Shown: in pieces, positions 15,629 through 62,869 of the stretch
How the letters are laid out: each line of letters opens with the position of its first letter
How positions within the stretch are numbered: position 1 is the stretch's first letter
NCBI GenBank assembly: GCA_040285855.1
Contig: JAUFOQ010000016.1
Location: 3,162,001-3,226,000 of the forward strand
DNA from: Eukaryota sp. GEM-RC1
Taxonomy: Eukaryota
Length of the DNA: 64,000 nt
Direction: 5' to 3'
The notes under the pieces: generated by a model
Databases searched by the model: none
Told to the model about the DNA's origin: nothing
The model's input: only the letters and a program-made list of their open reading frames with translations
Translations under genes and position numbers: made by a program

Positions 15629-15929
15629 TAAGCAGTATCATTCAACAATGACCTCATTTATTTAATAAATATTACCACTACATAGTTGATGAGTGATCAA
15701 AAAAGTTTGTTTTTGCAGTCAAAAGTCGAACTCTTTGTATAATTGTACAACAATTGAACCCTTATTGAGGAGTTTTTGCTTGAATTGAATTGTCTTTACA
15801 TTCTTGATGACAAGTCATGTCATGACCTCGAAAGTTCTTTTTAGCTCATAGAACACTCTGTGAAGAAAGTATTTCAGTGGTAATGAATTCTGTTTTTATT
15901 TATGTTGAGTTTTTTTAAATTGAATTAAG

Positions 15930-22197: not shown

Positions 22198-25100
22198 AAG
22201 TCAACCAAAAATCAAAACTTTACACAACAATATATTAAAACGAAATCCCTGCATCAAAACTTTTTTGATCAAATCAAAGCCATGTATCTAAACTAAGGAG
22301 AGACCACAACTTTTCTGAAGTCTTGCAACAAGTCTTTCAACCAAAGTGTTTTTAACTTATGTTCTGGGTATTACAGTTTCAAATTTTTGGACAATAAATT
22401 ATCGCACAAATTACAAACAATATTACTCTGAACTTCAGTTATCAGTTACTTGTCACATTCTGGGTCAGTGTTTGTCAAAAAGGAATAATAAAAAAAGAAT
22501 AATTAATTAAAACAACAAAAAAAATGAAACACAGTACGTATTTTTCATTGATTCCGTCATCGTTTCTATCTTCCACAAATCTTTATTGTAATAAAACATC
22601 ATGGATAAACTGACAGTCCCGAGAGCAGTCCTCCTGAGCCGTGCTGCTCAATGAATACATTTTTCTTGCTTTGTTGGAGCAGGAAGGAATAAAATTATGG
22701 CAGTAGTGAGAGCTTTCCTGGGTAGCAGCATCGTGTTGCTCAACTAGACAAAAAAAAGTACCACATATGCTTTTTGGAAGTACAGGTCATGTAGAAGTCA
22801 ACAATACATTATTGCCATTTATTGTATTGCAATTATTGGCCCCATCAATTATTTTTTCGGAATCCCTGCATTGATGGATGTACTAATCATTTATCTGTTC
22901 ATCTGCTGCAATTTGTCTGAATATCAAAATCCAGAATTATTGTAGTATCGAACCGAAACCCCAACTTTTGAAAATTCGATGAATTAATGTCAACTGTTTT
23001 ATCCGTGTTACCACTTTCTGTTTGTTATACCCTTTCGGCCAACGGCCTTTGTTGTCAATCTCAGCCATAATTGGAGATCGATTCAATAGGAGGTGGCATT
23101 TTTCAATAGCGATATGTTTATCAACAACATAACATTGTACCTACGAGCAATTTCTGCAGAAGCTGCCACTTTGAATGAAGAGATTGGTTTAAATCTAAAT
23201 ATTGAACAGTGTTTCGTTATAGGAAAAGAACCTAATTTATTAACAATTCGTTCAACTAAAGTACCTTTTATTAACTATCTTTCTGATTTCTTGATTGTTT
23301 TCTATTGGTAAAAAGGAGGATGTTGTCAAAAATCTTGATGATTACTTGATTTAGATTCAACAAGAGTTGGATAAAATCAAAGTTCTTGAAATTAAAAACA
23401 CTTAAAGTTCTTCATGCTCTAAATTTGTTATTCTGGTTTTAATCAATTTGAAGGACAGATGTTCAGTTGCTTTGATTAACCAAATTCGACAGATTTATGG
23501 ATTGTTGTCCAAAGATCTTCAATGGATCACAACATTTTAGGACTTGCATTCATGATGCTGTCATAGATCAAATTCATGCAATGTGTAAGTCCTACAAAAT
23601 CGAATGTTTGAAATCAATAATTTAAAAAATAGTGATTCCGATAAAATGTGTATTTTATGTTATAAATTAAGGAAATACAAACAACTAGTACTTAAAAGAT
23701 ATTAAAAAGTGATTCTGATAAGTTATTTTGGTAAAGAACAGCTGATGTGATCGTTCCATCAGTCAAGGATGAACTAACGGCTGTTGATGCGATTACTGTG
23801 GATGTTTGCAAAAAAGGGCATTTAAGGATGCTAAAATGAAGTGTCTCCACTTGATTTTTCAGAACAATACAAGAGAAACAAATATGTTGTTCCCTTGACT
23901 ACTCTCAAACATTCTTGACATGTTGAGTACGAATTATGTCCTATTTCCATTTCAATTTATGGTCGACTTGGTAAAGAAGCTCTTTGTTTTCTCTCTGATG
24001 TTGAGATAGTTGTAAAAAAAGAATGAACAAGAAATTTGACTTTCAGTTTTGCTTGACTTGTATTGTTCATCAAAGGATTTGGCTTACATCTAGATTGAAG
24101 AGGTTTAATTTATTGCACCTTTTGAGACTATACGAGCAATTTCTGCAGAAGCTGCCACTTTGAATGAAGAGATGGGTTTAAATCTAAATATTGAAAAGTG
24201 TTTCGTTATAGGAAAAGAACCTAATTTATTAACAATTCGTTCAATTGAAGTACCTTTTATTAATTATCTTTCTGATTTCTTGATTGTTTCTTATTTTTTT
24301 TACCAAAGCAAACTTTTATGGAACAAAAACACTAAAATTCCAAAATTGTTTCTTATTGGTAAAAAGGCAAAGTTCCTGAAATTAAAAACACTTAAAGTTC
24401 TTCATGCTCTAAATTTGCTATTCTGGTTTTAATCAATTTGAAGGACATATGTTCAGTTGCTTTGATTAACCAAATTCGACACCAAAGACCTTCAATGGAA
24501 CACAACATTTTAGGACTTGCATTCATGATGCTGTCATAGATCAAATTCGTGCAATGTGTAAGTCCCACAAAATCGAATCTTTGAAATCAATAATTAAAAA
24601 ATAGTGATTCTGATAGGAGTTTTGGTAAAGAACAGCTGATGTCATGGTTCTATCAGTCAATGATGAACTAACGGCTGTTGATGCGATTACTGTGGATGTT
24701 TGCAAAAAGGGCATTTAAGGATGCTAACAATGAAGTGTCTCCACTTGATTTTTCAGAACAATACAAGAGAAACAAATATGATGTTCCCTTGACTACTCTC
24801 AAACATTCTAGACATGTTGAGTACGAATTTTGTCCTATTGCCATTTCAATTTATGTTCGACTTGGTAAAGAAGCTCTTTGTTTTCTCTCTGATGTTGAGA
24901 TAGTTGTAAAAAAGAATGACCAATAAATTGGACTTTCAGTTTTGCTTGACTTGTATTGTTCATCAAAGGATTTGGCTTACATCTAGATTGAAGAGGTTTA
25001 ATTTATTGCACCTTTTGAGACTATACGAGCAATTTCTGCAGAAGCTGCCACTTTGAATGAAGAGATGGGTTTAAATCTAAATATTGAAAAGTGTTTCGTT

Positions 25101-28100
25101 ATAGGAAAAGAACCTAATTTATTAACAATTCGTTCAATTGAAGTACTAGTACCTTTTATTAATTATGTTTCTGATTTCTTGATTGTTTCTTATTTTTTTT
25201 TACCAAAGCAAACTTTTATGGAACAAAAACACTAAAATTAAAAAATTGTTTCTTATTGGTAAAGAGAAGCATGTTGTCAAAAATCTTGATGATTACTTGA
25301 TTTAGATTCAACAAGAGTTGGATAAAATCAAAGTTCTTGAAATTAAAAACACTTAAAGTTCTTCATGCTCTAAATTTGTTATTCTGGTTTTAATCAATTT
25401 GAAGGGCAGATGTTCAGTTGCTTTGATTAACCAAATTCGACAGATTTATGGATTGTTGTCCAAAGATCTTCAATGGAACACAACATTTTAGGACTTGCAT
25501 TCATGATGCTGTCATAGATCAAATTCGTGCAATGTGTAAGTCCCACAAAATCGAATCTTTGAAATCAATAATTAAAAAATAGTGATTCTGATAGGAGTTT
25601 TGGTAAAGAACAGCTGATGTCATGGTTCTATCAGTCAATGATGAACTAACGGCTGTTGATGCGATTACTGTGGATGTTTGCAAAAAAGGGCATTTAAGGA
25701 TGCTAACAATGAAGTGTCTCCACTTGATTTTTCAGAACAATACAAGAGAAACAAATATGATGTTCCCTTGACTACTCTCAAACATTCTAGACATGTTGAG
25801 TACGAATTTTGTCCTATTGCCATTTCAATTTATGTTCGACTTGGTAAAGAAGCTCTTTGTTTTCTCTCTGATGTTGAGATAGTTGTAAAAAAAGAATGAC
25901 CAATAAATTGGACTTTCAGTTTTGCTTGACTTGTATTGTTCATCAAAGGATTTGGCTTACATCTAGATTGAAGAGGTTTAATTTATTGCACCTTTTGAGA
26001 CTATACGAGCAATTTCTGCAGAAGCTGCCACTTTGAATGAAGAGATGGGTTTAAATCTAAATATTGAAAAGTGTTTCGTTATAGGAAAAGAACCTAATTT
26101 ATTAACAATTCGTTCAATTGAAGTACTAGTACCTTTTATTAATTATGTTTCTGATTTCTTGATTGTTTCTTATTTTTTTTTACCAAAGCAAACTTTTATG
26201 GAACAAAAACACTAAAATTAAAAAATTGTTTCTTATTGGTAAAGAGAAGCATGTTGTCAAAAATCTTGATGATTACTTGATTTAGATTCAACAAGAGTTG
26301 GATAAAATCAAAGTTCTTGAAATTAAAAACACTTAAAGTTCTTCATGCTCTAAATTTGTTATTCTGGTTTTAATCAATTTGAAGGGCAGATGTTCAGTTG
26401 CTTTGATTAACCAAATTCGACAGATTTATGGATTGTTGTCCAAAGATCTTCAATGGAACACAACATTTTAGGACTTGCATTCATGATGCTGTCATAGATC
26501 AAATTCGTGCAATGTGTAAGTCCCACAAAATCGAATCTTTGAAATCAATAATTAAAAAATAGTGATTCTGATAAGAGTTTTGGTAAAGAACAGCTGATGT
26601 CATGGTTCTATCAGTCAATGATGAACTAACGGCTGTTGATGCGATTACTGTGGATGTTTGCAAAACAGGGCGTTTAAGGATGCTAACAATGAAGTGTCTC
26701 CACTTGATTTTTCAGAACAATACAAGAGAAACAAATATGATGTTCCCTTGACTACTCTCAAACATTCTAGACATGTTGAGTACGAATTTTGTCCTATTGC
26801 CATTTCAATTTATGTTCGACTTGGTAAAGAAGCTCTTTGTTTTCTCTCTGATGTTGAGATAGTTGTAAAAAAAGAATGAACAAGAAATTGGACTTTCAGT
26901 TTTGCTTGACTTGTATTGTTCATCAAAGGATTTGGCTTACATCTAGATTGAAGAGGTTTAATTTATTGCACCTTTTGAGACTATACGAGCAATTTCTGCA
27001 GAAGCTGCCACTTTGAATGAAGAGATGGGTTTAAATCTAAATATTGAAAAGTGTTTCGTTATAGGAAAAGAACCTAATTTATTAACAATTCGTTCAATTG
27101 AAGTACTAGTACCTTTTATTAATTATGTTTCTGATTTCTTGATTGTTTCTTATTTTTTTTTTACCAAAGCAAACTTTTATGGAACAAAAACACTAAAATT
27201 AAAAAATTGTTTCTTATTGGTAAAGAGAAGCATGTTGTCAAAAATCTTGATGATTACTTGATTTAGATTCAACAAGAGTTGGATAAAATCAAAGTTCTTG
27301 AAATTAAAAACACTTAAAGTTCTTCATGCTCTAAATTTGTTATTCTGGTTTTAATCAATTTGAAGGCAGAGGTTCAGTTGCTTTGATTAACCAAATTCGA
27401 CAGATTTATGGATTGTTGTCCAAAGATCTTCAATGGATCACAACATTTTAGGACTTGCATTCATGATGCTGTCATAGATCAAATTCGTGCAATGTGTAAG
27501 TCCCACAAAATCGTATCTTTGAAATCAATAATTAAAAAATAGTGATTCTGATAAGAGTTTTGGTAAAGAACAGCTGATGTCATGGTTCTATCAGTCAATG
27601 ATGAACTAACGGCTGTTGATGCGATTACTGTGGATGTTTGCAAAACAGGGCGTTTAAGGATGCTAACAATGTCTCCACTTGATTTTTCAGAACAATACAA
27701 GAGAAACAAATATGATGTTCCCTTGACTATTCTCAAACATTCTAGACATGTTGAGTACGAATTTTGTCCTATTGCCATTTCAATTTATGTTCGACTTGGT
27801 AAAGAAGCTCTTTGTTTTCTCTCTGATGTTGAGATAGTTGTAAAAAAAGAATGAACAAGAAATTTGACTTTCAGTTTTGCTTGACTTGTATTGTTCATCA
27901 AAGGATTTGGCTTACATCTAGATTGAAGAGGTTTAATTTATTGCACCTTTTGAGACTATACGAGCAATTTCTGCAGAAGCTGCCACTTTGAATGAAGAGA
28001 TGGGTTTAAATCTAAATATTGAAAAGTGTTTCGTTATAGGAAAAGAACCTAATTTATTAACAATTCGTTCAATTGAAGTACTAGTACCTTTTATTAATTA

Positions 28101-31100
28101 TGTTTCTGATTTCTTGATTGTTTCTTATTTTTTTTACCAAAGCAAACTTTTATGGAACAAAAACACTAAAATTAAAAAATTGTTTCTTATTGGTAAAGAG
28201 AAGCATGTTGTCAAAAATCTTGATGATTACTTGATTTAGATTCAACAAGAGTTGGATAAAATCAAAGTTCTTGAAATTAAAAACACTTAAAGTTCTTCAT
28301 GCTCTAAATTTGTTATTCTGGTTTTAATCAATTTGAAGGCAGAGGTTCAGTTGCTTTGATTAACCAAATTCGACAGATTTATGGATTGTTGTCCAAAAGA
28401 TCTTCAATGGATCACAACATTTTAGGACTTGCATTCATGATGCTGTCATAGATCAAATTCGTGCAATGTGTAAGTCCCACAAAATCGTATCTTTGAAATC
28501 AATAATTAAAAAATAGTGATTCTGATAAGAGTTTTGGTAAAGAACAGCTGATGTCATGGTTCTATCAGTCAATGATGAACTAACGGCTGTTGATGCGATT
28601 ACTGTGGATGTTTGCAAAACAGGGCGTTTAAGGATGCTAACAATGTCTCCACTTGATTTTTCAGAACAATACAAGAGAAACAAATATGATGTTCCCTTGA
28701 CTATTCTCAAACATTCTAGACATGTTGAGTACGAATTTTGTCCTATTGCCATTTCAATTTATGTTCGACTTGGTAAAGAAGCTCTTTGTTTTCTCTCTGA
28801 TGTTGAGATAGTTGTAAAAAAGAATGAACAAGAAATTTGACTTTCAGTTTTGCTTGACTTGTATTGTTCATCAAAGGATTTGGCTTACATCTAGATTGAA
28901 GAGGTTTAATTTATTGCACCTTTTGAGACTATACGAGCAATTTCTGCAGAAGCTGCCACTTTGAATGAAGAGATGGGTTTAAATCTAAATATTGAAAAGT
29001 GTTTCGTTATAGGAAAAGAACCTAATTTATTAACAATTCGTTCAATTGAAGTACTAGTACCTTTTATTAATTATGTTTCTGATTTCTTGATTGTTTCTTA
29101 TTTTTTTTACCAAAGCAAACTTTTATGGAACAAAAACACTAAAATTAAAAAATTGTTTCTTATTGGTAAAGAGAAGCATGTTGTCAAAAATCTTGATGAT
29201 TACTTGATTTAGATTCAACAAGAGTTGGATAAAATCAAAGTTCTTGAAATTAAAAACACTTAAAGTTCTCCATGCTCTAAATTTGTTATTCTTGGTTTTA
29301 ATCAATTTGAAGGACAGATGTTCAGTTGCTTTGATTAACCAAATTCGACAGATTTATGGATTGTTGTCCAAAGATCTTCAATGGATCACAACATTTTAGG
29401 ACTTGCATTCATGATGCTGTCATAGATCAAATTCATGCAATGTGTAAGTCCTACAAAATCGAATGTTTGAAATCAATAATTTAAAAAATAGTGATTCCGA
29501 TAAAATGTGTATTTTATGTTATAAATTAAGGAAATACAAACAACTAGTACTTAAAAGATATTAAAAAGTGATTCTGATAAGTTATTTTGGTAAAGAACAG
29601 CTGATGTGATCGTTCCATCAGTCAAGGATGAACTAACGGCTGTTGACGTGATTACTGTGGATGTTTGCAAAAGAGGGCATTTAAGGATGCTAACAATGAA
29701 GTGTCTCCACTTGATTTTTCAGAACAATACAAGAGAAACAAATATGTTGTTCCCTTGACTACTCTCAAACATTCTTGACATGTTGAGTACGAATTATGTC
29801 CTATTTCCATTTCAATTTATGGTCGACTTGGTAAAGAAGCTCTTTGTTTTCTCTCTGATGTTGAGATAGTTGTAAAAAAAGAATGAACAAGAAATTTGAC
29901 TTTCAGTTTTGCTTGACTTGTATTGTTCATCAAAGGATTTGGCTTACATCTAGATTGAAGAGGTTTAATTTATTGCACCTTTTGAGACTATACGAGCAAT
30001 TTCTGCAGAAGCTGCCACTTTGAATGAAGAGATGGGTTTAAATCTAAATATTGAAAAGTGTTTCGTTATAGGAAAAGAACCTAATTTATTAACAATTCGT
30101 TCAATTGAAGTACCTTTTATTAATTATCTTTCTGATTTCTTGATTGTTTCTTATTTTTTTTTTACCAAAGCAAACTTTTATGGAACAAAAACACTAAAAT
30201 TCCAAAATTGTTTCTTATTGGTAAAAGGCAAAGTTCCTGAAATTAAAAACACTTAAAGTTCTTCATGCTCTAAATTTGCTATTCTGGTTTTAATCAATTT
30301 GAAGGACATATGTTCAGTTGCTTTGATTAACCAAATTCGACACCAAAGACCTTCAATGGAACACAACATTTTAGGACTTGCATTCATGATGCTGTCATAG
30401 ATCAAATTCGTGCAATGTGTAAGTCCCACAAAATCGAATCTTTGAAATCAATAATTAAAAAATAGTGATTCTGATAAGAGTTTTGGTAAAGATCAGCTGA
30501 TGTCATGGTTCTATCAGTCAATGATGAACTAACGGCTGTTGATGCGATTACTGTGGATGTTTGCAAAAAAAGGGCATTTAAGGATGCTAACAATGAAGTG
30601 TCTCCACTTGATTTTTCAGAACAATACAAGAGAAACAAATATGATGTTCCCTTGACTACTCTCAAACATTCTAGACATGTTGAGTACGAATTTTGTCCTA
30701 TTGCCATTTCAATTTATGTTCGACTTGGTAAAGAAGCTCTTTGTTTTCTCTCTGATGTTGAGATAGTTGTAAAAAAAGAATGACCAAGAAATTGGACTTT
30801 CAGTTTTGCTTGACTTGTATTGTTCATCAAAGGATTTGGCTTACATCTAGATTGAAGAGGTTTAATTTATTGCACCTTTTGAGACTATACGAGCAATTTC
30901 TGCAGAAGCTGCCACTTTGAATGAAGAGATGGGTTTAAATCTAAATATTGAAAAGTGTTTCGTTATAGGAAAAGAACCTAATTTATTAACAATTCGTTCA
31001 ATTGAAGTACTAGTACCTTTTATTAATTATGTTTCTGATTTCTTGATTGTTTCTTATTTTTTTACCAAAGCAAACTTTTATGGAACAAAAACACTAAAAT

Positions 31101-34100
31101 TAAAAAATTGTTTCTTATTGGTAAAGAGAAGCATGTTGTCAAAAATCTTGATGATTACTTGATTTAGATTCAACAAGAGTTGGATAAAATCAAAGTTCTT
31201 GAAATTAAAAACACTTAAAGTTCTTCATGCTCTAAATTTGTTATTCTGGTTTTAATCAATTTGAAGGGCAGATGTTCAGTTGCTTTGATTAACCAAATTC
31301 GACAGATTTATGGATTGTTGTCCAAAGATCTTCAATGGAACACAACATTTTAGGACTTGCATTCATGATGCTGTCATAGATCAAATTCGTGCAATGTGTA
31401 AGTCCCACAAAATCGAATCTTTGAAATCAATAATTAAAAAATAGTGATTCTGATAAGAGTTTTGGTAAAGAACAGCTGATGTCATGGTTCTATCAGTCAA
31501 TGATGAACTAACGGCTGTTGATGCGATTACTGTGGATGTTTGCAAAACAGGGCGTTTAAGGATGCTAACAATGAAGTGTCTCCACTTGATTTTTCAGAAC
31601 AATACAAGAGAAACAAATATGATGTTCCCTTGACTACTCTCAAACATTCTAGACATGTTGAGTACGAATTTTGTCCTATTGCCATTTCAATTTATGTTCG
31701 ACTTGGTAAAGAAGCTCTTTGTTTTCTCTCTGATGTTGAGATAGTTGTAAAAAAAGAATGAACAAGAAATTGGACTTTCAGTTTTGCTTGACTTGTATTG
31801 TTCATCAAAGGATTTGGCTTACATCTAGATTGAAGAGGTTTAATTTATTGCACCTTTTGAGACTATACGAGCAATTTCTGCAGAAGCTGCCACTTTGAAT
31901 GAAGAGATGGGTTTAAATCTAAATATTGAAAAGTGTTTCGTTATAGGAAAAGAACCTAATTTATTAACAATTCGTTCAATTGAAGTACTAGTACCTTTTA
32001 TTAATTATGTTTCTGATTTCTTGATTGTTTCTTATTTTTTTTACCAAAGCAAACTTTTATGGAACAAAAACACTAAAATTAAAAAATTGTTTCTTATTGG
32101 TAAAGAGAAGCATGTTGTCAAAAATCTTGATGATTACTTGATTTAGATTCAACAAGAGTTGGATAAAATCAAAGTTCTTGAAATTAAAAACACTTAAAGT
32201 TCTTCATGCTCTAAATTTGTTATTCTGGTTTTAATCAATTTGAAGGGCAGAGGTTCAGTTGCTTTGATTAACCAAATTCGACAGATTTATGGATTGTTGT
32301 CCAAAGATCTTCAATGGATCACAACATTTTAGGACTTGCATTCATGATGCTGTCATAGATCAAATTCGTGCAATGTGTAAGTCCCACAAAATCGTATCTT
32401 TGAAATCAATAATTAAAAAATAGTGATTCTGATAAGAGTTTTGGTAAAGAACAGCTGATGTCATGGTTCTATCAGTCAATGATGAACTAACGGCTGTTGA
32501 TGCGATTACTGTGGATGTTTGCAAAACAGGGCGTTTAAGGATGCTAACAATGTCTCCACTTGATTTTTCAGAACAATACAAGAGAAACAAATATGATGTT
32601 CCCTTGACTACTCTCAAACATTCTAGACATGTTGAGTACGAATTTTGTCCTATTGCCATTTCAATTTATGTTCGACTTGGTAAAGAAGCTCTTTGTTTTC
32701 TCTCTGATGTTGAGATAGTTGTAAAAAAGAATGAACAAGAAATTTGACTTTCAGTTTTGCTTGACTTGTATTGTTCATCAAAGGATTTGGCTTACATCTA
32801 GATTGAAGAGGTTTAATTTATTGCACCTTTTGAGACTATACGAGCAATTTCTGCAGAAGCTGCCACTTTGAATGAAGAGATGGGTTTAAATCTAAATATT
32901 GAAAAGTGTTTCGTTATAGGAAAAGAACCTAATTTATTAACAATTCGTTCAATTGAAGTACCTTTTATTAATTATCTTTCTGATTTCTTGATTGTTTCTT
33001 ATTTTTTTACCAAAGCAAACTTTTATGGAACAAAAACACTAAAATTCCAAAATTGTTTCTTATTGGTAAAAAGGCAAAGTTCCTGAAATTAAAAACACTT
33101 AAAGTTCTTCATGCTCTAAATTTGCTATTCTGGTTTTAATCAATTTGAAGGACATATGTTCAGTTGCTTTGATTAACCAAATTCGACACCAAAGACCTTC
33201 AATGGAACACAACATTTTAGGACTTGCATTCATGATGCTGTCATAGATCAAATTCGTGCAATGTGTAAGTCCCACAAAATCGAATCTTTGAAATCAATAA
33301 TTAAAAAATAGTGATTCTGATAAGAGTTTTGGTAAAGAACAGCTGATGTCATGGTTCCATCGGTCAATGATGAACTAACGGCTGTTGATGCGATTACTGT
33401 GGATGTTTGCAAAAAAGGGCATTTAAGGATGCTAACAATGAAGTGTCTCCACTTGATTTTTCAGAACAATACAAGAGAAACAAATATGATGTTCCCTTGA
33501 CTACTCTCAAACATTCTAGACATGTTGAGTACGAATTATGTCCTATTGCCATTTCAATTTATGTTCGACTTGGTAAAGAAGCTCTTTGTTTTCTCTGATG
33601 TTGAGATAGTTGTAAAAAAAGAATGAACAAGACATTTGACTTTCAGTTTTGCTTGACTTGTAATGTTCATCAAAGAATTTGGCTTACATCTAGATTGGGG
33701 CGTTTCCTTTATTGCACCTTTTGAGACTATACGAGCAATTTCTGCAGAAGCTGACACTTTGAATGAAGAGATTGGTTTAAATCTAAATATTGAAAAATGT
33801 TTCGTTATAGGAAAACAACTTAATTTATTAACAATTCGTTCAACTGAAGTACCTTTTATTAATTATCTTCCTGATTTCTTTATTTTTTCTTATTTTTTTC
33901 CAAAGCAAACTTTTATGGAACAAAAACACTAATATTACAAAATTGTTTCTTATTGGTAAAAAGGCAAAGTTCTGGAAATTAACAACTCTTAAAGTTCTTC
34001 ATGCTCTAAATTTGCTATTCTGGTTTTAATCAATTTGAAGGACACATGTTCAGTTGCTTTGATTAACCAAATTCGACCAAATTCGGGATTGTTGTCCAAA

Positions 34101-36614
34101 GATCTTCAATGGATCAGAACATTTTAGGACTTGCATTCATGATGCTGTCATAGATCAAATTCGTACAATGTGTAAGTCCCACAAAATCGAATCTTTGAAA
34201 TCGATAATTCAAAAATAGTGATTCTGATAAGAGTTTTGGTAAAGAACGGCTGATGTCATGGTTCCATTAGTCAATGACGAACTAACGGCTGTTGATGCGA
34301 TTACTGTGGATGTTTGCAAAAAAAGGGCATTTAAGGATGCTAACAATGAAGTGTCTCCACTTGATTTTTCAGTACAATACAAGAGAAACAAATATGATGT
34401 TCCCTTGACTACTCTCAAACATTCTAGACATGTTGAGTACGAATTATGTCCTTTGCCATTTCAATTTATGGTCGACTTGGTAAAGAAGCTCTTTGTTTTC
34501 TCTGATGTTGAGATAGTTGTTAAAAAAGAATGAACAAGACATTTGACTTTCAGTTTTGCTTGACTTGTATTGTTCATCAAAGGATTTGGCTTACATCTAG
34601 ATTGAAGAGGTTTAATTTATTGCACATTTTGAGACTAAGCAATTTCTGCAGAAGCTGCCACTTTGAATGAAGAGATGGGTTTATATCTAAATATTGAAAA
34701 GTGTTTCGGTATAGGAAAAGAACCTAATTTATTAACAATTCGTTCAATTGAAGTACCTTTTATTAATTATCTTTCTGATTTCTTGATTGTTTCTTATTTT
34801 TTTTTACCAAAGCAAACTTTTATGGAACAAAAACACTAAAATTCCAAAATTGTTTCTTATTGGTAAAAAGGCAAAGTTCCTGAAATTAAAAACACTTAAA
34901 GTTCTTCATGCTCTAAATTTGCTATTCTGGTTTTAATCAATTTGAAGGACATATGTTCAGTTGCTTTGATTAACCAAATTCGACACCAAAGACCTTCAAT
35001 GGAACACAACATTTTAGGACTTGCATTCATGATGCTGTCATAGATCAAATTCGTGCAATGTGTAAGTCCCACAAAATCGAATCTTTGAAATCAATAATTA
35101 AAAAATAGTGATTCTGATAAGAGTTTTGGTAAAGAACAGCTGATGTCATGGTTCCATCGGTCAATGATGAACTAACGGCTGTTGATGCGATTACTGTGGA
35201 TGTTTGCAAAAGAGGGCATTTAAGGATGCTAACAATGAAGTGTCTCCACTTGATTTTTCAGAACAATACAAGAGAAACAAATATGATGTTCCCTTGACTA
35301 CTCTCAAACATTCTAGACATGTTGAGTACGAATTTTGTCCTATTGCCATTTCAATTTATGTTCGACTTGGTAAAGAAGCTCTTTGTTTTCTCTCTGATGT
35401 TGAGATAGTTGTAAAAAAAGAATGAACAAGAAATTTGACTTTCAGTTTTGCTTGACTTGTATTGTTCATCAAAGGATTTGGCTTACATCTAGATTGAAGA
35501 GGTTTAATTTATTGCACCTTTTGAGACTATACGAGCAATTTCTGCAGAAGCTGCCACTTTGAATGAAGAGATGGGTTTAAATCTAAATATTGAAAAGTGT
35601 TTCGTTATAGGAAAAGAACCTAATTTATTAACAATTCGTTCAATTGAAGTACTAGTACCTTTTATTAATTATGTTTCTGATTTCTTGATTGTTTCTTATT
35701 TTTTTTTTTACCAAAGCAAACTTTTATGGAACAAAAACACTAAAATTAAAAAATTGTTTCTTATTGGTAAAGAGAAGCATGTTGTCAAAAATCTTGATGA
35801 TTACTTGATTTAGATTCAACAAGAGTTGGATAAAATCAAAGTTCTTGAAATTAAAAACACTTAAAGTTCTTCATGCTCTAAATTTGTTATTCTTGGTTTT
35901 AATCAATTTGAAGGACAGATGTTCAGTTGCTTTGATTAACCAAATTCGACAGATTTATGGATTGTTGTCCAAAGATCTTCAATGGATCACAACATTTTAG
36001 GACTTGCATTCATGATGCTGTCATAGATCAAATTCATGCACTGTGTAAGTCCTACAAAATCGAATCTTTGAAATCAATAATTAAAAAATAGTGATTCTGA
36101 TAAGAGTTTTGGTAAAGAACAGCTGATGTCATGGTTCTATCAGTCAATGATGAACTAACGGCTGTTGATGCGATTACTGTGGATGTTTGCAAAACAGGGC
36201 GTTTAAGGATGCTAACAATGAAGTGTCTCCACTTGATTTTTCAGAACAATACAAGAGAAACAAATATGATGTTCCTTGACTACTCTCAAACATTCTAGAC
36301 ATGTTGAGTACGAATTTTGTCCTATTGCCATTTCAATTTATGTTCGACTTGGTAAAGAAGCTCTTTGTTTTCTCTCTGATGTTGAGATAGTTGTAAAAAA
36401 AGAATGAACAAGAAATTGGACTTTCAGTTTTGCTTGACTTGTATTGTTCATCAAAGGATTTGGCTTACATCTAGATTGAAGAGGTTTAATTTATTGCACC
36501 TTTTGAGACTATACGAGCAATTTCTGCAGAAGCTGCCACTTTGAATGAAGAGATGGGTTTAAATCTAAATATTGAAAAGTGTTTCGTTATAGGAAAAGAA
36601 CCTAATTTATTAAC

Positions 36615-48800: not shown

Positions 48801-51526
48801 CCACTTGATTTTTCAGAACAATACAAGAGAAACAAATATGATGTTCCCTTGACTACTCTCAAACATTCTAGACATGTTGAGTACGAATTATGTCCTATTG
48901 CCATTTCAATTTATGTTCGACTTGGTAAAGAAGCTCTTTGTTTTCTCTGATGTTGAGATAGTTGTAAAAAAAGAATGAACAAGACATTTGACTTTCAGTT
49001 TTGCTTGACTTGTAATGTTCATCAAAGAATTTGGCTTACATCTAGATTGGGGCGTTTCCTTTATTGCACCTTTTGAGACTATACGAGCAATTTCTGCAGA
49101 AGCTGACACTTTGAATGAAGAGATTGGTTTAAATCTAAATATTGAAAAATGTTTCGTTATAGGAAAACAACTTAATTTATTAACAATTCGTTCAACTGAA
49201 GTACCTTTTATTAATTATCTTCCTGATTTCTTTATTTTTTCTTATTTTTTTCCAAAGCAAACTTTTATGGAACAAAAACACTAATATTACAAAATTGTTT
49301 CTTATTGGTAAAAAGGCAAAGTTCTGGAAATTAACAACTCTTAAAGTTCTTCATGCTCTAAATTTGCTATTCTGGTTTTAATCAATTTGAAGGACACATG
49401 TTCAGTTGCTTTGATTAACCAAATTCGACCAAATTCGGGATTGTTGTCCAAAGATCTTCAATGGATCAGAACATTTTAGGACTTGCATTCATGATGCTGT
49501 CATAGATCAAATTCGTACAATGTGTAAGTCCCACAAAATCGAATCTTTGAAATCGATAATTCAAAAATAGTGATTCTGATAAGAGTTTTGGTAAAGAACG
49601 GCTGATGTCATGGTTCCATTAGTCAATGACGAACTAACGGCTGTTGATGCGATTACTGTGGATGTTTGCAAAAAGGGCATTTAAGGATGCTAACAATGAA
49701 GTGTCTCCACTTGATTTTTCAGTACAATACAAGAGAAACAAATATGATGTTCCCTTGACTACTCTCAAACATTCTAGACATGTTGAGTACGAATTATGTC
49801 CTTTGCCATTTCAATTTATGGTCGACTTGGTAAAGAAGCTCTTTGTTTTCTCTGATGTTGAGATAGTTGTTAAAAAAGAATGAACAAGACATTTGACTTT
49901 CAGTTTTGCTTGACTTGTATTGTTCATCAAAGGATTTGGCTTACATCTAGATTGAAGAGGTTTAATTTATTGCACATTTTGAGACTAAGCAATTTCTGCA
50001 GAAGCTGCCACTTTGAATGAAGAGATGGGTTTATATCTAAATATTGAAAAGTGTTTCGGTATAGGAAAAGAACCTAATTTATTAACAATTCGTTCAATTG
50101 AAGTACCTTTTATTAATTATCTTTCTGATTTCTTGATTGTTTCTTATTTTTTTTTTACCAAAGCAAACTTTTATGGAACAAAAACACTAAAATTCCAAAA
50201 TTGTTTCTTATTGGTAAAAAGGCAAAGTTCCTGAAATTAAAAACACTTAAAGTTCTTCATGCTCTAAATTTGCTATTCTGGTTTTAATCAATTTGAAGGA
50301 CATATGTTCAGTTGCTTTGATTAACCAAATTCGACACCAAAGACCTTCAATGGAACACAACATTTTAGGACTTGCATTCATGATGCTGTCATAGATCAAA
50401 TTCGTGCAATGTGTAAGTCCCACAAAATCGAATCTTTGAAATCAATAATTAAAAAATAGTGATTCTGATAAGAGTTTTGGTAAAGAACAGCTGATGTCAT
50501 GGTTCCATCGGTCAATGATGAACTAACGGCTGTTGATGCGATTACTGTGGATGTTTGCAAAAGAGGGCATTTAAGGATGCTAACAATGAAGTGTCTCCAC
50601 TTGATTTTTCAGAACAATACAAGAGAAACAAATATGATGTTCCCTTGACTACTCTCAAACATTCTAGACATGTTGAGTACGAATTTTGTCCTATTGCCAT
50701 TTCAATTTATGTTCGACTTGGTAAAGAAGCTCTTTGTTTTCTCTCTGATGTTGAGATAGTTGTAAAAAAAGAATGAACAAGAAATTTGACTTTCAGTTTT
50801 GCTTGACTTGTATTGTTCATCAAAGGATTTGGCTTACATCTAGATTGAAGAGGTTTAATTTATTGCACCTTTTGAGACTATACGAGCAATTTCTGCAGAA
50901 GCTGCCACTTTGAATGAAGAGATGGGTTTAAATCTAAATATTGAAAAGTGTTTCGTTATAGGAAAAAAACCTAATTTATTAACAATTCGTTCAATTGAAG
51001 TACTAGTACCTTTTATTAATTATGTTTCTGATTTCTTGATTGTTTCTTATTTTTTTTTACCAAAGCAAACTTTTATGGAACAAAAACACTAAAATTAAAA
51101 AATTGTTTCTTATTGGTAAAGAGAAGCATGTTGTCAAAAATCTTGATGATTACTTGATTTAGATTCAACAAGAGTTGGATAAAATCAAAGTTCTTGAAAT
51201 TAAAAACACTTAAAGTTCTTCATGCTCTAAATTTGCTATTCTGGTTTTAATCAATTTGAAGGGCAGATGTTCAGTTGCTTTGATTAACCAAATTCGACAG
51301 ATTTATGGATTGTTGTCCAAAGATCTTCAATGGATCACAACATTTTAGGACTTGCATTCATGATGCTGTCATAGATCAAATTCATGCAATGTGTAAGTCC
51401 TACAAAATCGAATGTTTGAAATCAATAATTTAAAAAATAGTGATTCTGACAAGAGTTTTGGTAAAGAACAGCTGATGTCATGGTTCTATCAGTCAATGAT
51501 GAACTAACGGCTGTTGATGCGATTAC

Positions 51527-51838
51527 TAGGGGTGTACAATACTCGAGTCGGACTCGAGTCGGACTCAGCTATTGTAAGTCTGAGTCTGAGTCCGACTCAC
51601 CGTATCTGAGTCTGAGTCTGAGTCGAACTCAACTAGTCTGAGTCTGAGTCCGACTCACCGTATCTGAGTCTGAGTCTGAGTCCCACTCATAATATCTGAG
51701 TCTGAGTCTGAGCTTGAGTTTCACATCATAAACAATCTTTATTAAGTACATTATTAACCATTATTATTCTACAGTCCACCGCTTAAGACAGACACATGCT
51801 TCAACATTTAAATCTGTTAGACGTGATCTGTCAGGAGC
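51527..51838 (-). mobile_element. hAT transposon 3' end (terminus, subterminal repeats, transposase C-terminus), copy 1
   Basis: taggggtgtacaatactcgag terminus and tctgag repeats; essentially identical to 56651-56962. Confidence 0.85.
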
Positions 51839-52771
51839 AAATTTGTAATACGAACTCACAGAGCCTGAATTCCATATTCAGCATAAGTAGTCAGAACCCA
51901 CTCCCTCTTCTCAGCTGCAAACTGATGATTAACGGAATTCCGGTTCAAGGTTTTTAGGACAGTGGAGCAACCATGTCCGTAATCACACAAGACCCGGCTA
52001 CGAAGCGTAACATGACGCCTGTCAACAAAAATGTTCGCTTCACATCCGCAAACAATGTTGAGTCCCGGTCCTTGGGTAGCGCCCAGGGCATCTTGACCTT
52101 CGATACCAGTAGCATCGCGTACCTGACACATGTGGATAAGGCATTACCAATAATACCTGGATCCAACAAACTATTATTGGGAATTGATCTGATGAAACAG
52201 TTAGGACTACTGACCGAAGACGGACTAGTCATCCCGATTGACAGTGCCATCCTGGCCACCGTGAACGATGAGTCCGAGTTCGACTCACGCATCATACAAC
52301 CTTTCCACAGCCCCTCTATCATTAACGTAGACTTTAATAAACATGTTTTTGATTCCGGTTATACAATACTTTTAGACGATGACACCAGAGCCGAGAGCTT
52401 ATTGAACCTGTTTCAGAAGTTTTCTTCAATATTCTTAACAGCTCCTCACAAAGATTGCATCGATTGTCCTCCCATGGCGATCGACTTCTACAACGAGGAG
52501 TCCACTGTGAGACGGAAACCTCGACGGCTCAATCCAATGAAACAGCAGATTGCCGAACAGATTTTCGATGAACTTGTCCGTCAGGACCTTGCTGAGTTAA
52601 CAACTCCCAATGGACAGTTCAGTTCACCGGTAGTACTGGTGGTCTATCCCGATCAACGTAAGCCCCGCCTTACGGGTGACTTCAGTGGTTCCGATGGAAT
52701 TAACGCATTGACCCGAGTTGTCGAACCGAATCTTCCAATTCTAAAAGTAATAGACAACAACACTACAGTGT
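51839..52771 (+). mobile_element. Ty3/gypsy LTR retrotransposon pol fragment (protease + RT N-terminus), copy 1
   Basis: INGIPVQGF*DSGATMSVI and LLLGIDLM protease motifs, then PRRL..FSSPVVLV..PRLTGDF..INALT..NLP. Confidence 0.85.
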
Positions 52772-54088: not shown

Positions 54089-54400
54089 TAGGGGTGTACA
54101 ATACTCGAGTCGGACTCGAGTCGGACTCAGCTATTGTAAGTCTGAGTCTGAGTCCGACTCACCGTATCTGAGTCTGAGTCTGAGTCGAACTCAACTAGTC
54201 TGAGTCTGAGTCCGACTCACCGTATCTGAGTCTGAGTCTGAGTCCCACTCATAATATCTGAGTCTGAGTCTGAGCTTGAGTTTCACATCATAAACAATCT
54301 TTATTAAGTACATTATTAACCATTATTATTCTACTGTCCACCGCTTAAGACAGACACATGCTTCAACATTTAAATCTGTTAGACGTGATCTGTCAGGAGC
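54089..54400 (-). mobile_element. hAT transposon 3' end, copy 2
   Basis: Same sequence and same monomer insertion point as 51527-51838. Confidence 0.85.
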
Positions 54401-55334
54401 AAATTTGTAATACGAACTCACAGAGCCTGAATTCCATATTCAGCATAAGTAGTCAGAACCCACTCCCTCTTCTCAGCTGCAAACTGATGATTAACGGAAT
54501 TCCGGTTCAAGGTTTTTAGGACAGTGGAGCAACCATGTCCGTAATCACACAAGACCCGGCTACGAAGCGTAACATGACGCCTGTCAACAAAAATGTTCGC
54601 TTCACATCCGCAAACAATGTTGAGTCCCGGTCCTTGGGTAGCGCCCAGGGCATCTTGACCTTCGATACCAGTAGCATCGCGTACCTGACACATGTGGATA
54701 AGGCATTACCAATAATACCTGGATCCAACAAACTATTATTGGGAATTGATCTGATGAAACAGTTAGGACTACTGACCGAAGACGGACTAGTCATCCCGAT
54801 TGACAGTGCCATCCCTGGCCACCGTGAACGATGAGTCCGAGTTCGACTCACGCATCATACAACCTTTCCACAGCCCCTCTATCATTAACGTAGACTTTAA
54901 TAAACATGTTTTTGATTCCGGTTATACAATACTTTTAGACGATGACACCAGAGCCGAGAGCTTATTGAACCTGTTTCAGAAGTTTTCTTCAATATTCTTA
55001 ACAGCTCCTCACAAAGATTGCATCGATTGTCCTCCCATGGCGATCGACTTCTACAACGAGGAGTCCACTGTGAGACGGAAACCTCGACGGCTCAATCCAA
55101 TGAAACAGCAGATTGCCGAACAGATTTTCGATGAACTTGTCCGTCAGGACCTTGCTGAGTTAACAACTCCCAATGGACAGTTCAGTTCACCGGTAGTACT
55201 GGTGGTCTATCCCGATCAACGTAAGCCCCGCCTTACGGGTGACTTCAGTGGTTCCGATGGAATTAACGCATTGACCCGAGTTGTCGAACCGAATCTTCCA
55301 ATTCTAAAAGTAATAGACAACAACACTACAGTGT
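54401..55334 (+). mobile_element. Ty3/gypsy pol fragment, copy 2
   Basis: Matches 51839-52771 except for one extra C near 54813. Confidence 0.85.
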
Positions 55335-56650: not shown

Positions 56651-58069
56651 TAGGGGTGTACAATACTCGAGTCGGACTCGAGTCGGACTCAGCTATTGTA
56701 AGTCTGAGTCTGAGTCCGACTCACCGTATCTGAGTCTGAGTCTGAGTCGAACTCAACTAGTCTGAGTCTGAGTCCGACTCACCGTATCTGAGTCTGAGTC
56801 TGAGTCCCACTCATAATATCTGAGTCTGAGTCTGAGCTTGAGTTTCACATCATAAACAATCTTTATTAAGTACATTATTAACCATTATTATTCTACTGTC
56901 CACCGCTTAAGACAGACACATGCTTCAACATTTAAATCTGTTAGACGTGATCTGTCAGGAGCCACAACTCTTCCAGCTTGTGAAAAAAAAGACTCAGAAG
57001 CTACATTAGAGGCTTGAACTGATAGTGCAATTCGAGATGTTCTTGCAAGTGTAGGGAACTTTGATTCATTAAGTTTCCACCACATCAAAGGATCTTGGTC
57101 CATTTCAATCAGTCCATCACTGAGATAGATATCAAGTTCATCTAACTCAGTTAATTATTCTTCGTTACGAACACATACTTTTATTCTTACAAGCTCTTTC
57201 ATTAGAGATTTTCCTTGAGGGTTGTTCTGCGATTCTTCTGTACTTACTGCAAGACTTCCAACTTTGGATTCAATAAACTCCCTCATTGAACCCTTCAGCA
57301 TCTCTTCATTCTCAATGTAACAACTTGGTAGGAAGTTCTGATTGTTTTTGAATCTAGGATCCAACACAAGACCGACATATCCTGCAAAATCGAACACACT
57401 TCTGTCACTTCGACGTCCACTGATATACTGCGTAAACTTTTCCAACACTTTTGATGCTACGGCAGAAATAAAACCAGATTCACGTCCTTCTACAGGATCG
57501 CAAATTACTTTAAGCTTTTCCCATAATAAATTGAACAAAGTTAAACCTACGGACACAGTAACGGTAGACCTTGAAGAACAAATTTCAGTTAACTCATAGA
57601 AATCCGATAACAAGAAGATCAACAGCTGATGAAGATCTTCTCTTTCAGAAATGGTGAGTTTCAAATGCATCAACTTGTTGTCATTGAAAATCATATGATC
57701 TACAATGTCTATCAATTGGCTGTACCTTTCTAGCATCATGAAGGACGAATTCCATCTTGTTGAAACATCAACAATCATGGAGGTGGTTTCAAGTCCTTCC
57801 AACTTGCATCTATCAGAAATACGTTCCCTCAAGTCTGAGCTTCTGTGTGATCTGACACAAAACTCTCTAATTTTTTTGACGAAAAAACAACCCTGATCTT
57901 CAAGAAAATTTGGAGTACTTCTGAATAATTGGTTGAGGGCAAGGTGAAGAACATGCGCCAAACATCTTCTATGATAAACAATACCAGGTGTACCCAATAA
58001 TTCCACAAATTTTGTTAAATCAATGTTTGAGACATTGTCTGAAGTCACAGAAAAAACACATCATTGATG
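56651..58069 (-). mobile_element. 5'-truncated hAT DNA transposon with transposase pseudogene
   Basis: TSDN, RCLAHVLHL, DVSTRWNS, LDPRFK and dimerisation domain DPLMWWK..FPTLAR..ASNVASESFFS. One in-frame TAA at 57155-57157. Only one terminus is present. Confidence 0.92.
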
Positions 58070-61000
58070 ACATTTTAGGACTTGCATTCATGATGCTGTC
58101 ATAGATCAAATTCGTGCAATGTGTAAGTCCCACAAAATCGAATCTTTGAAATCAATAATTAAAAAATAGTGATTCTGATAAGAGTTTTGGTAAAGAACAG
58201 CTGATGTCATGGTTCTATCAGTCAATGATGAACTAACGGCTGTTGATGCGATTACTGTGGATGTTTGCAAAACAGGGCGTTTAAGGATGCTAACAATGAA
58301 GTGTCTCCACTTGATTTTTCAGAACAATACAAGAGAAACAAATATGATGTTCCCTTGACTACTCTCAAACATTCTAGACATGTTGAGTACGAATTTTGTC
58401 CTATTGCCATTTCAATTTATGTTCGACTTGGTAAAGAAGCTCTTTGTTTTCTCTCTGATGTTGAGATAGTTGTAAAAAAAGAATGAACAAGAAATTGGAC
58501 TTTCAGTTTTGCTTGACTTGTATTGTTCATCAAAGGATTTGGCTTACATCTAGATTGAAGAGGTTTAATTTATTGCACCTTTTGAGACTATACGAGCAAT
58601 TTCTGCAGAAGCTGCCACTTTGAATGAAGAGATGGGTTTAAATCTAAATATTGAAAAGTGTTTCGTTATAGGAAAAGAACCTAATTTATTAACAATTCGT
58701 TCAATTGAAGTACTAGTACCTTTTATAATTATGTTTCTGATTTCTTGATTGTTTCTTATTTTTTTTACCAAAGCAAACTTTTATGGAACAAAAACACTAA
58801 AATTAAAAAATTGTTTCTTATTGGTAAAGAGAAGCATGTTGTCAAAAATCTTGATGATTACTTGATTTAGATTCAACAAGAGTTGGAGAAAATCAAAGTT
58901 CTTGAAATTAAAAACACTTAAAGTTCTTCATGCTCTAAATTTGTTATTCTGGTTTTGATCAATTTGAAGGGCAGATGTTCAGTTGCTTTGATTAACCAAA
59001 TTCGACAGATTTATGGATTGTTGTCCAAAGATCTTCAATAGATCACAACATTTTAGGACTTGCATTCATGATGCTGTCATAGATCAAATTCGTGCAATGT
59101 GTAAGTCCCACAAAATCGTATCTTTGAAATCAATAATTAAAAAATAGTGATTCTGATAAGAGTTTTGGTAAAGAACAGCTGATGTCATGGTTCTATCAGT
59201 CAATGATGAACTAACGGCTGTTGATGCGATTACTGTGGATGTTTGCAAAACAGGGCGTTTAAGGATGCTAACAATGAAGTGTCTCCACTTGATTTTTCAG
59301 AACAATACAAGAGAAACAAATATGATGTTCCCTTGACTACTCTCAAACATTCTAGACATGTTGAGTACGAATTTTGTCCTATTGCCATTTCAATTTATGT
59401 TCGACTTGGTAAAGAAGCTCTTTGTTTTCTCTCTGATGTTGAGATAGTTGTAAAAAAAGAATGAACAAGAAATTTGACTTTCAGTTTTGCTTGACTTGTA
59501 TTGTTCATCAAAGGATTTGGCTTACATCTAGATTGAAGAGGTTTAATTTATTGCACCTTTTGAGACTATACGAGCAATTTCTGCAGAAGCTGCCACTTTG
59601 AATGAAGAGATTGGTTTAAATCTAAATATTGAAAAGTGTTTCGTTATAGGAAAAGAACCTAATTTATTAACAATTCGTTCAATTGAAGTACTAGTACCTT
59701 TTATTAATTATGTTTCTGATTTCTTGATTGTTTCTTATTTTTTTTACCAAAGCAAACTTTTATGGAACAAAAACACTAAAATTAAAAAATTGTTTCTTAT
59801 TGGTAAAGAGAAGCATGTTGTCAAAAATCTTGATGATTACTTGATTTAGATTCAACAAGAGTTGGATAAAATCAAAGTTCTTGAAATTAAAAACACTTAA
59901 AGTTCTTCATGCTCTAAATTTGTTATTCTGGTTTTAATCAATTTGAAGGACATATGTTCAGTTGCTTTGATTAACCAAATTCGACCAAATTCGGGATTGT
60001 TGTCCAAAGATCTTCAATGGATCAGAACATTTTAGGACTTGCATTCATGATGCTGTCATAGATCAAATTCGTACAATGTGTAAGTCCTACAAAATCGAAT
60101 CTTTGAAATCAATGATTTAAAGAATAGTGATTCTGATAATAGTTTTGGTAAAGAACGGCTGATGTCATGGTTCCATCAGTCAATGACGAACTAACGGCTG
60201 TTGATGCGATTACTGTGAATGTTTGCAAAAAGGGCATTTAAGGATGCTAACAATGTCTCCACTTGATTTTTCAGAACAATACAAGAGAAACAAATATGAT
60301 GTTCCCTTGACTACTCTCAAACATTCTAGACATGTTGAGTACGAATTATGTCCTATTGCCATTTCAATTTATGTTCGACTTGGTAAAGAAGCTCTTTGTT
60401 TTCTCTGATGTTGAGATAGTTGTAAAAAAAGAATGAACAAGACATTTGACTTTCAGTTTTGCTTGACTTGTAATGTTCATCAAAGAATTTGGCTTACATC
60501 TAGATTGGGGCGTTTCCTTTATTGCACCTTTTGAGACTATACGAGCAATTTCTGCAGAAGCTGACACTTTGAATGAAGAGATTGGTTTAAATCTAAATAT
60601 TGAAAAATGTTTCGTTATAGGAAAACAACTTAATTTATTAACAATTCGTTCAACTGAAGTACCTTTTATTAATTATCTTCCTGATTTCTTTATTTTTTCT
60701 TATTTTTTTCCAAAGCAAACTTTTATGGAACAAAAACACTAATATTACAAAATTGTTTCTTATTGGTAAAAAGGCAAAGTTCTGGAAATTAACAACTCTT
60801 AAAGTTCTTCATGCTCTAAATTTGCTATTCTGGTTTTAATCAATTTGAAGGACACATGTTCAGTTGCTTTGATTAACCAAATTCGACCAAATTCGGGATT
60901 GTTGTCCAAAGATCTTCAATGGATCAGAACATTTTAGGACTTGCATTCATGATGCTGTCATAGATCAAATTCGTACAATGTGTAAGTCCCACAAAATCGA

Positions 61001-62869
61001 ATCTTTGAAATCGATAATTCAAAAATAGTGATTCTGATAAGAGTTTTGGTAAAGAACGGCTGATGTCATGGTTCCATTAGTCAATGACGAACTAACGGCT
61101 GTTGATGCGATTACTGTGGATGTTTGCAAAAAAAGGGCATTTAAGGATGCTAACAATGAAGTGTCTCCACTTGATTTTTCAGTACAATACAAGAGAAACA
61201 AATATGATGTTCCCTTGACTACTCTCAAACATTCTAGACATGTTGAGTACGAATTATGTCCTTTGCCATTTCAATTTATGGTCGACTTGGTAAAGAAGCT
61301 CTTTGTTTTCTCTGATGTTGAGATAGTTGTTAAAAAAGAATGAACAAGACATTTGACTTTCAGTTTTGCTTGACTTGTATTGTTCATCAAAGGATTTGGC
61401 TTACATCTAGATTGAAGAGGTTTAATTTATTGCACATTTTGAGACTAAGCAATTTCTGCAGAAGCTGCCACTTTGAATGAAGAGATGGGTTTATATCTAA
61501 ATATTGAAAAGTGTTTCGGTATAGGAAAAGAACCTAATTTATTAACAATTCGTTCAATTGAAGTACCTTTTATTAATTATCTTTCTGATTTCTTGATTGT
61601 TTCTTATTTTTTTTTTACCAAAGCAAACTTTTATGGAACAAAAACACTAAAATTCCAAAATTGTTTCTTATTGGTAAAAAGGCAAAGTTCCTGAAATTAA
61701 AAACACTTAAAGTTCTTCATGCTCTAAATTTGCTATTCTGGTTTTAATCAATTTGAAGGACATATGTTCAGTTGCTTTGATTAACCAAATTCGACACCAA
61801 AGACCTTCAATGGAACACAACATTTTAGGACTTGCATTCATGATGCTGTCATAGATCAAATTCGTGCAATGTGTAAGTCCCACAAAATCGAATCTTTGAA
61901 ATCAATAATTAAAAAATAGTGATTCTGATAAGAGTTTTGGTAAAGAACAGCTGATGTCATGGTTCCATCGGTCAATGATGAACTAACGGCTGTTGATGCG
62001 ATTACTGTGGATGTTTGCAAAAGAGGGCATTTAAGGATGCTAACAATGAAGTGTCTCCACTTGATTTTTCAGAACAATACAAGAGAAACAAATATGATGT
62101 TCCCTTGACTACTCTCAAACATTCTAGACATGTTGAGTACGAATTTTGTCCTATTGCCATTTCAATTTATGTTCGACTTGGGAAAGAAGCTCTTTGTTTT
62201 CTCTCTGATGTTGAGATAGTTGTAAAAAAAGAATGAACAAGAAATTTGACTTTCAGTTTTGCTTGACTTGTATTGTTCATCAAAGGATTTGGCTTACATC
62301 TAGATTGAAGAGGTTTAATTTATTGCACCTTTTGAGACTATACGAGCAATTTCTGCAGAAGCTGCCACTTTGAATGAAGAGATGGGTTTAAATCTAAATA
62401 TTGAAAAGTGTTTCGTTATAGGAAAAAAACCTAATTTATTAACAATTCGTTCAATTGAAGTACTAGTACCTTTTATTAATTATGTTTCTGATTTCTTGAT
62501 TGTTTCTTATTTTTTTTTACCAAAGCAAACTTTTATGGAACAAAAACACTAAAATTAAAAAATTGTTTCTTATTGGTAAAGAGAAGCATGTTGTCAAAAA
62601 TCTTGATGATTACTTGATTTAGATTCAACAAGAGTTGGATAAAATCAAAGTTCTTGAAATTAAAAACACTTAAAGTTCTTCATGCTCTAAATTTGCTATT
62701 CTGGTTTTAATCAATTTGAAGGGCAGATGTTCAGTTGCTTTGATTAACCAAATTCGACAGATTTATGGATTGTTGTCCAAAGATCTTCAATGGATCACAA
62801 CATTTTAGGACTTGCATTCATGATGCTGTCATAGATCAAATTCATGCAATGTGTAAGTCCTACAAAATC

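Follow-up and report, generated by a model that had tools for sequence, protein, structure and literature searches.

A kilobase satellite apparently built from a dead two-subfamily mosaic of CRE-like retrotransposons in a metamonad genome

Introduction

Satellites derived from the coding regions of LINE elements have already been described, including the chicken HinfI satellite from CR1 as well as PROsat of Phodopus and the common satellite of cetaceans, both from L1 (PMC9659126). Tandem junctions between transposable elements (TEs) are reported to seed satellites (PMC5932611). Among the skoliomonad metamonads, to which the isolate TZLM3-RCL (Skoliomonas) belongs, three published assemblies of 16-21 contigs are 28-55% repetitive, and neither "centromer" nor "kinetochore" occurs in the main text of the paper that reports them (PMC11316075). 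Here we analyze a window of 64,000 nucleotides from Eukaryota sp. GEM-RC1 (GenBank assembly GCA_040285855.1, contig JAUFOQ010000016.1, positions 3,162,001 to 3,226,000 of the forward strand), which carries a tandem array made of coding sequence from CRE-like non-LTR retrotransposons. A first-pass annotation of the window had proposed that this array may be an undescribed type of centromere. The array is a real TE-derived satellite of a known kind, with an unusual unit that draws on two subfamilies and a host from a little-studied lineage. A search of the literature, with most subscription papers outside its coverage, returned no satellite from a CRE-like element and no satellite of any origin in skoliomonads.

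Results

Organization of the array

The satellite domain occupies positions 23142..62869 (no strand assigned) and consists of about 38 monomer units and captured TE pieces, without any host gene. Self-comparison and the list of open reading frames (ORFs) place its start 1.8 kb past the last long ORF, which ends at 21345, in agreement with the first-pass annotation. With two leading partial units (23142-23377) excluded, the array was cut into 41 pieces, 36 of which reach 680 bp or more and 32 of which reach 850 bp or more. Monomer DNA totals 34,977 bp, equivalent to 37.6 units of 930 bp, or about 38 head-to-tail repeats of 0.9-1 kb, and the 36 pieces of at least 680 bp differ pairwise by 0-5.5% in substitutions, with a mean of 2.9%. 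The array thus has the many homogenised head-to-tail units that define a satellite, and its self-matches over hundreds of bases at 90-100% identity are far beyond chance. Tandem Repeats Finder was blind to it solely owing to a period limit of 500.

In a tree, the monomers fall into five clean clades, classes A-E, with diagnostic substitutions common within classes, which are up to 5.5% apart. Class A units measure 960-980 bp, class B about 885 bp, and class C 905-916 bp, and classes D and E are also present. By our own class assignment, the order along the array is EAAAAAEAAABCAABDABCBCBCADBCBCApApApAABCAp, where p denotes a partial unit. This order reveals a higher-order periodicity of BC dimers and BCA trimers, and block duplications occur with periods of 5.86, 5.47, and 2.56 kb. 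The first monomer run (23142..36621, plus strand) is mostly class A, with two class E units and the first BCA trimer, and includes the 5.86 kb-period duplication (23294-27227 and 29152-33073). The second run (39823..51535, plus strand) holds BC dimers and the 5.47 kb-period block duplication, and the last run (58070..62869, plus strand) reads AABCA followed by one partial unit. Between the members of the large block pairs there are 25, 42, and 57 substitutions as well as multi-base indels. A single substitution separates one 2,562 bp pair, and one monomer pair has none. The number, size, and similarity of the monomers, their variant classes, the higher-order periodicity, and an inversion had all been noted in the first-pass annotation and were borne out. 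Both class E monomers also contain an AT-rich, non-CRE piece of about 60 bp (23644-23703 and 29503-29562) beside a short duplication, with no other match in the window.

Composition of the monomer

The closest relatives of the monomer are CRE-like retrotransposons of skoliomonads that encode a reverse transcriptase (RT) and a restriction-like endonuclease (REL). Projected onto one of these relatives, P0005 (838 amino acids, aa), the monomer spans residues ~571-603, 640-790, and then 290-403. The unit therefore runs from the post-RT linker into the REL endonuclease, minus its zinc knuckle, and then jumps back to the stretch from the RT catalytic motif to the RT end, so that the repeat junction leads from within the endonuclease back to the catalytic motif. 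The C terminus and the 3' end of the element are absent.

Comparison with the collected relatives shows that the pieces come from two subfamilies, which are 63-74% identical to each other over longer alignments. In the example monomer M04, the post-RT linker (26370..26468, plus strand) is assigned to subfamily 1, as it lies nearer the young family (24/33 aa to P0271) than subfamily 2 (20/32 aa to P0131). The adjoining REL endonuclease (26461..26920, plus strand), which has lost its zinc knuckle, is frameshifted, and stops short of the C terminus and 3' end, is likewise assigned to subfamily 1, with 53-55 of 70 aa matching P0248, P0271, and P0279 of the young family. The RT piece (26930..27349, plus strand) extends from the dead catalytic motif to KICYSG across the M04/M05 phase boundary; it matches P0131, P0149, and P0203 at 41-42 of 48 aa versus 24 of 48 for P0124 and P0248 of the young family, and a 94% split in the tree groups it with subfamily 2. 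As judged by these protein matches and the tree, the unit is shown to combine RT sequence of subfamily 2 with linker and endonuclease sequence of subfamily 1. We had first read it as one element with two internal deletions, a view superseded by the two-subfamily matches and the tree. The origin in RT and endonuclease coding sequence of a CRE-like element given by the first-pass annotation holds, but the source is a multi-junction mosaic of two subfamilies rather than one fragment. Either this locus or a recombinant parent may have been where the mosaic formed. Within the window, the copy at 15.9-16.6 kb, whose linker has subfamily-2 states, shares just 35 of 67 positions with the endonuclease of the monomer.

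The motif LIDLK, near residue 570 of P0005, is a near-common boundary of the end of the insert at 36.6 kb (37470-37489), the subfamily-1 start of the monomer (26370), and a dispersed copy (15913), and this boundary is an AT-rich near-palindrome. The internal boundaries of the relatives show no enrichment there that would indicate a fixed self-target, with three starts and two ends in the 20-residue bin.

Lesions shared by the copies

The RT catalytic motif is disrupted in all 32 pieces in which the pattern was found, and an identical stop codon is present in all 37 pieces that cover its site. Similarly, the RT-linker junction is common to 37 of the 41 pieces and the knuckle deletion to 39. The unit has diverged from its parents by 15-25% in protein, as against 0-5.5% in DNA between copies. 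Because the inactivating lesions are common to all copies that cover them, decay preceded amplification. Read from these lesions, the unit is shown to be unable to encode or mobilise anything. Its TE origin is further supported by matches of at least 40 aa to 175 of the 293 collected proteins, and its immobility by the shared lesions and the missing 3' end. Searches of the window gave no Rfam match and no tRNA, and hence no small RNA gene within the unit of the kind that accompanies CRE elements in spliced leader (SL) RNA arrays.

Distribution of the monomer

The distribution of the monomer was tested by proxy, using gene models that match its in-frame endonuclease ORF rather than genome DNA. 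This search recovered two clusters among two candidates, with four member sequences, all on one contig of 3,558,747 bp and each encoded in the window. An HMMER scan of 1.84 billion representatives returned 48 matches, of which only one exceeded 63% identity, namely the window's own. As a control, the young CRE family flanking the array gave matches at 93-100% identity, and the 46 listed of the 52 members of six young-family clusters were spread over contigs of 11 different lengths. One of these contigs measures 3,558,747 bp, from which we infer that it belongs to the same assembly. On two contigs, the named young-family copies are spread across 942 and 1,038 gene numbers. The collection thus covers the TE gene models of this genome widely, and the monomer is found only here.

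As the young family is seen on 11 contigs and the monomer on one, the proxy argues against an array on every chromosome, and the pattern that the first-pass annotation had named as support, about one large array per chromosome, was not borne out. One further array could escape the proxy, although arrays on all of a dozen or more chromosomes would be unlikely to do so. Two other candidates were discarded. A monomer junction 24-mer pointed to a single locus in metagenome contigs (L001), where 22-24 bases matched without a CRE protein match, as expected by chance, and P0304, considered as a second array for its nine matched stretches, is an unrelated repeat protein.

Inversion and captured pieces

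The forward orientation of the monomers is interrupted by an inverted block of about 2.5 monomers (2.3 kb; 37490..39825, minus strand), which is 99.0% identical to 45036-47384. The left inversion junction is filled by an RT piece of a young subfamily-1 CRE-like element (36622..37489, plus strand), which is truncated at both ends and shares 99.4% identity with 63175-64000. This piece bridges the forward monomer and the inverted block with short or imperfect junction homology, an arrangement that would resemble a multi-step template switch. The insert at 36622 and the RT piece of the monomer (e.g., at 26930) each start just ahead of the RT catalytic motif, by a few bases, and the two monomers that flank the insert break at near-equal unit positions (766 and 746).

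Farther along, a hAT end enters a monomer at 51536. Two copies of this end continue into a piece of a long terminal repeat (LTR) retrotransposon, whereas a third continues into the C terminus of a transposase. The first copy (51536..52771, no strand assigned) comprises the single hAT end with its subterminal repeats (303 bp) and the protease and RT start of the LTR element, and the second (54098..55334, no strand assigned) is 99.8% identical to it and lies within the 2,562 bp unit. The third, truncated copy (56660..58069, minus strand) has a Dimer_Tnp_hAT match (E 1e-25) and a weak RNase-H-like part. The subterminal repeats are GAGTCT-rich with periods of 26-58 bp (51541-51712; also at 54103 and 56665). 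The LTR element, which we take to be Ty3/gypsy, was called from sub-threshold Pfam protease matches and its neighbours in the Atlas, and PDB searches with the LTR-element and hAT pieces gave no match. At the right edge, a 5'-truncated young subfamily-1 CRE-like copy (62870..64000, plus strand; RVT_1, E 1.5e-10) runs off the window.

The captured hAT and LTR-element pieces have been duplicated along with the monomers. The nested young TEs of the first-pass annotation therefore include no intact element, as the CRE piece is cut at both ends, only one end of the hAT element occurs, and the LTR element is represented by an internal piece; all are truncated on the sides seen, and some have been co-amplified with the array.

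Parent family, host, and left flank

The parent ORF encodes an RT followed by a C-terminal CCHC knuckle and a REL endonuclease. An RVT_1 domain is present in P0005 and P0131, and a loosened form of the published REL pattern was found in 42 of the 293 proteins, including P0005 and P0271, with R-x3-HD instead of RHD. The best PDB matches of the parent are R2 proteins (E 2e-11). For its first match in the Atlas, the commonest phylum is Euglenozoa, known for three members, which we treat as a lead only. The parent, a possible member of the CRE clade, is designated CRE-like by its motifs, including those regarded as typical of CRE elements. No fixed insertion target was found: the window gave no Rfam match that would mark an SL RNA gene and has no telomere repeat arrays, and the copies lie on 11 contigs.

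Of 80 long proteins related to the flanking RT, the best 47 are gene models from the isolates TZLM1-RC and TZLM3-RCL; by this protein evidence, the host is therefore a skoliomonad-type metamonad. The left flank encodes eukaryotic housekeeping proteins (Yip1, PTEN, a calcineurin-like phosphatase, TPR, and SRP72-like proteins). Two overlapping plus-strand ORFs at 2329-4832 (371 and 480 aa, with weak ARM and TPR matches) resemble a single gene that is interrupted by an intron or a frameshift, and three long ORFs have no Pfam match (986-1750, 13937-15010, and 19678-21345). Of the 23,141 bp that precede the array, 3,508 match CRE-like proteins, in five segments between host genes, and with skoliomonad assemblies being so repetitive, the compact protist genome assumed in the first-pass annotation is not poor in TEs. 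The five decayed segments belong to differing subfamilies (5272-8795 and 15838-16995), and the copy at 15838..16995 (plus strand) contains a linker with subfamily-2 states and a REL part. In the gap ahead of the array, a further repeat fragment at 22053-22212 is an 85% inverted match to 7395-7555. Elsewhere, the gene model P0273 fuses a Mem_trans transporter (E 9e-16) to young CRE-like sequence, which indicates an insertion in or near a host gene or an artefact of the model.

Discussion

Our analysis makes it probable that the satellite is a dead mosaic of two subfamilies which is likely confined to this locus, has likely grown by unequal exchange and template switching, and likely has no centromere role. 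CRE-like RT and REL elements of several subfamilies are shown to be scattered through this kind of genome, and one copy may have landed in or beside another, or a recombinant parent may have arisen, with deletions following. A first tandem duplication would then have seeded the array. Repeated exchange could have produced the dimers, trimers, and blocks of 2.6-5.9 kb and copied the captured hAT and LTR-element pieces along, while the inversion with its CRE filler would reflect a multi-step template switch. The resulting block may be silent chromatin that is tolerated in a repeat-rich genome. In 26 of the 288 proteins mapped to P0005, a downstream part of the element is followed by a more upstream one, and these back-jumps lie at scattered positions, and P0294 joins two subfamilies; these proteins suggest that CRE-in-CRE junctions are common raw material for such units.

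Several points weigh against this interpretation. Only four of the six methionine-started endonuclease ORFs of at least 90 aa in the array are in the collection, and all four are class A, so that the proxy would overlook masked arrays and arrays built from other variants. The cluster search was limited to representatives of 53-170 aa, the HMMER scan hides members of 50% clusters, and the single-locus searches covered the endonuclease part only. The proxy may also be compatible with a chromosome-specific centromere. A single relative supplied all 26 back-jump gene models, which may include splicing artefacts. As no subfamily-2 endonuclease protein is among the 293 collected relatives, a recombinant parent with a plain internal deletion is possible. 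In addition, a 40 kb gene-free array with higher-order repeats matches the look of small regional centromeres.

A regional centromere of the 3.56 Mb contig, formed by a chromosome-specific repeat while the other chromosomes use different repeat DNA, is in our judgment improbable. The array offers 40 kb without host genes, homogenised units, higher-order repeats, and captured TEs. Chromosome-specific repeats are bound by CENP-A in chicken (PMC11602149), kilobase arrays of Athila sub-sequences bind CENH3 in Rosa canina (10.64898/2026.09.17.752431), and protist and algal centromeres can be this small, with Zepp clusters of 1.5-42.3 kb (PMC3446292). However, a gene-free repeat domain with higher-order structure is common among regional centromeres without being diagnostic of them, nothing specific to centromeres was seen here beyond shape and size, and gene-free TE blocks are to be expected in genomes as repetitive as these. 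Moreover, the gene-model searches found the monomer family on no other contig, and the parent family is scattered rather than centrophilic. An excess of short dyad symmetry or a marked shift toward AT is a correlate of centromeres, though not a universal one. Dyads are not in excess in any of the three monomers analyzed, which fall below their shuffles (z -1.65, -1.70, and -1.94), and the GC content of 31.8% is near the values of 33-34% for dispersed CRE copies and 32.2% for intergenic DNA. The first-pass annotation had itself named confinement to one locus as grounds for abandoning its proposal, and this is what the proxy found, with the parent family scattered besides; as to the novelty it claimed, satellites from LINE coding regions have precedents (PMC9659126).

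A subtelomeric array, comparable to the telomere-associated arrays of Cnl1, MoTeR, and FoTeR in the clade that the parent resembles (PMC12857005), seems very improbable. While the right end of the domain does lie outside the window, housekeeping genes lie on the left side, and the window contains no tandem TTAGGG or CCCTAA, with one lone hexamer at 84. The units are without element 3' ends and are near-identical duplicates rather than independent insertions, and the combination that marks telomeric retrotransposon arrays, intact 3' ends beside telomere repeats, does not occur in the window. We give slightly less credence still to a shorter true repeat that was inflated or rearranged by long-read assembly. 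Such an error would fit the many homopolymer indels between copies, the two almost unchanged pairs, and the early nanopore data behind the published skoliomonad assemblies (PMC11316075). However, the 25-57 substitutions between the large pairs, which are accompanied by multi-base indels, mean that their variation is not assembly error, although the 2,562 bp pair with one substitution could be; nor does error make classes that form clean clades with diagnostic substitutions.

As a dead and probably local mosaic, the array is a snapshot of the birth of a satellite from retrotransposon debris, in which the parent subfamilies, the junctions, the shared lesions, and the later higher-order amplification can all be read. 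The array is also a cheap centromere candidate in a cultured organism. Although we doubt it, a chromosome-specific, working centromere of a 3.56 Mb metamonad chromosome derived from a dead two-subfamily CRE-like mosaic would be the first known centromere DNA of skoliomonads, and its centromeric satellite would have originated in the RT and REL coding regions of an element that is not centrophilic. Binding of CenH3 would then provide a first handle on centromeres in the lineage next to Carpediemonas, in which few kinetochore proteins are reported to be detected (PMC9089191).

Taken as a retrotransposon-derived satellite, the array can be compared with several known systems. In the Zepp and ZeppL centromeres of algae (PMC3446292; 10.1101/2025.03.28.645958), a non-LTR block of tens of kilobases likewise occurs in a small unicellular genome. 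However, each chromosome there carries one nested cluster of independent insertions, whereas here homogenised duplicates of a dead unit lie on one contig, and the parent, instead of being confined to one cluster per chromosome, extends, on each of two contigs, over ~1,000 gene numbers. The Athila arrays of Rosa canina (10.64898/2026.09.17.752431) similarly consist of kilobase monomers of TE sub-sequence, in arrays of 40-240 kb that include mosaics, but they derive from a centrophilic LTR family with measured CENH3, while the present parent is dispersed and the array is known from sequence alone. In the R1 array of Drosophila (PMC5932611), as here, a junction between two TE copies starts off an array, which then accumulates deletions, nested insertions, and structural variants; R1 units, however, are joined head-to-tail with a target-site duplication, whereas the present junctions are internal-to-internal and without a 3' end. 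In CRE1/2, SLACS, CZAR, Cnl1, MoTeR, and FoTeR, as in the parent, a CCHC knuckle and REL motifs follow the RT, but these described members of the CRE clade are site-specific or telomeric (PMC12857005), whereas the skoliomonad families are scattered among genes. Lastly, the LINE-derived satellites resemble the array as head-to-tail repeats containing part of a non-LTR element, including ORF2 sequence; the present one differs in its REL-type, CRE-like source, in a unit that is almost wholly coding and drawn from two subfamilies, and in its metamonad host.

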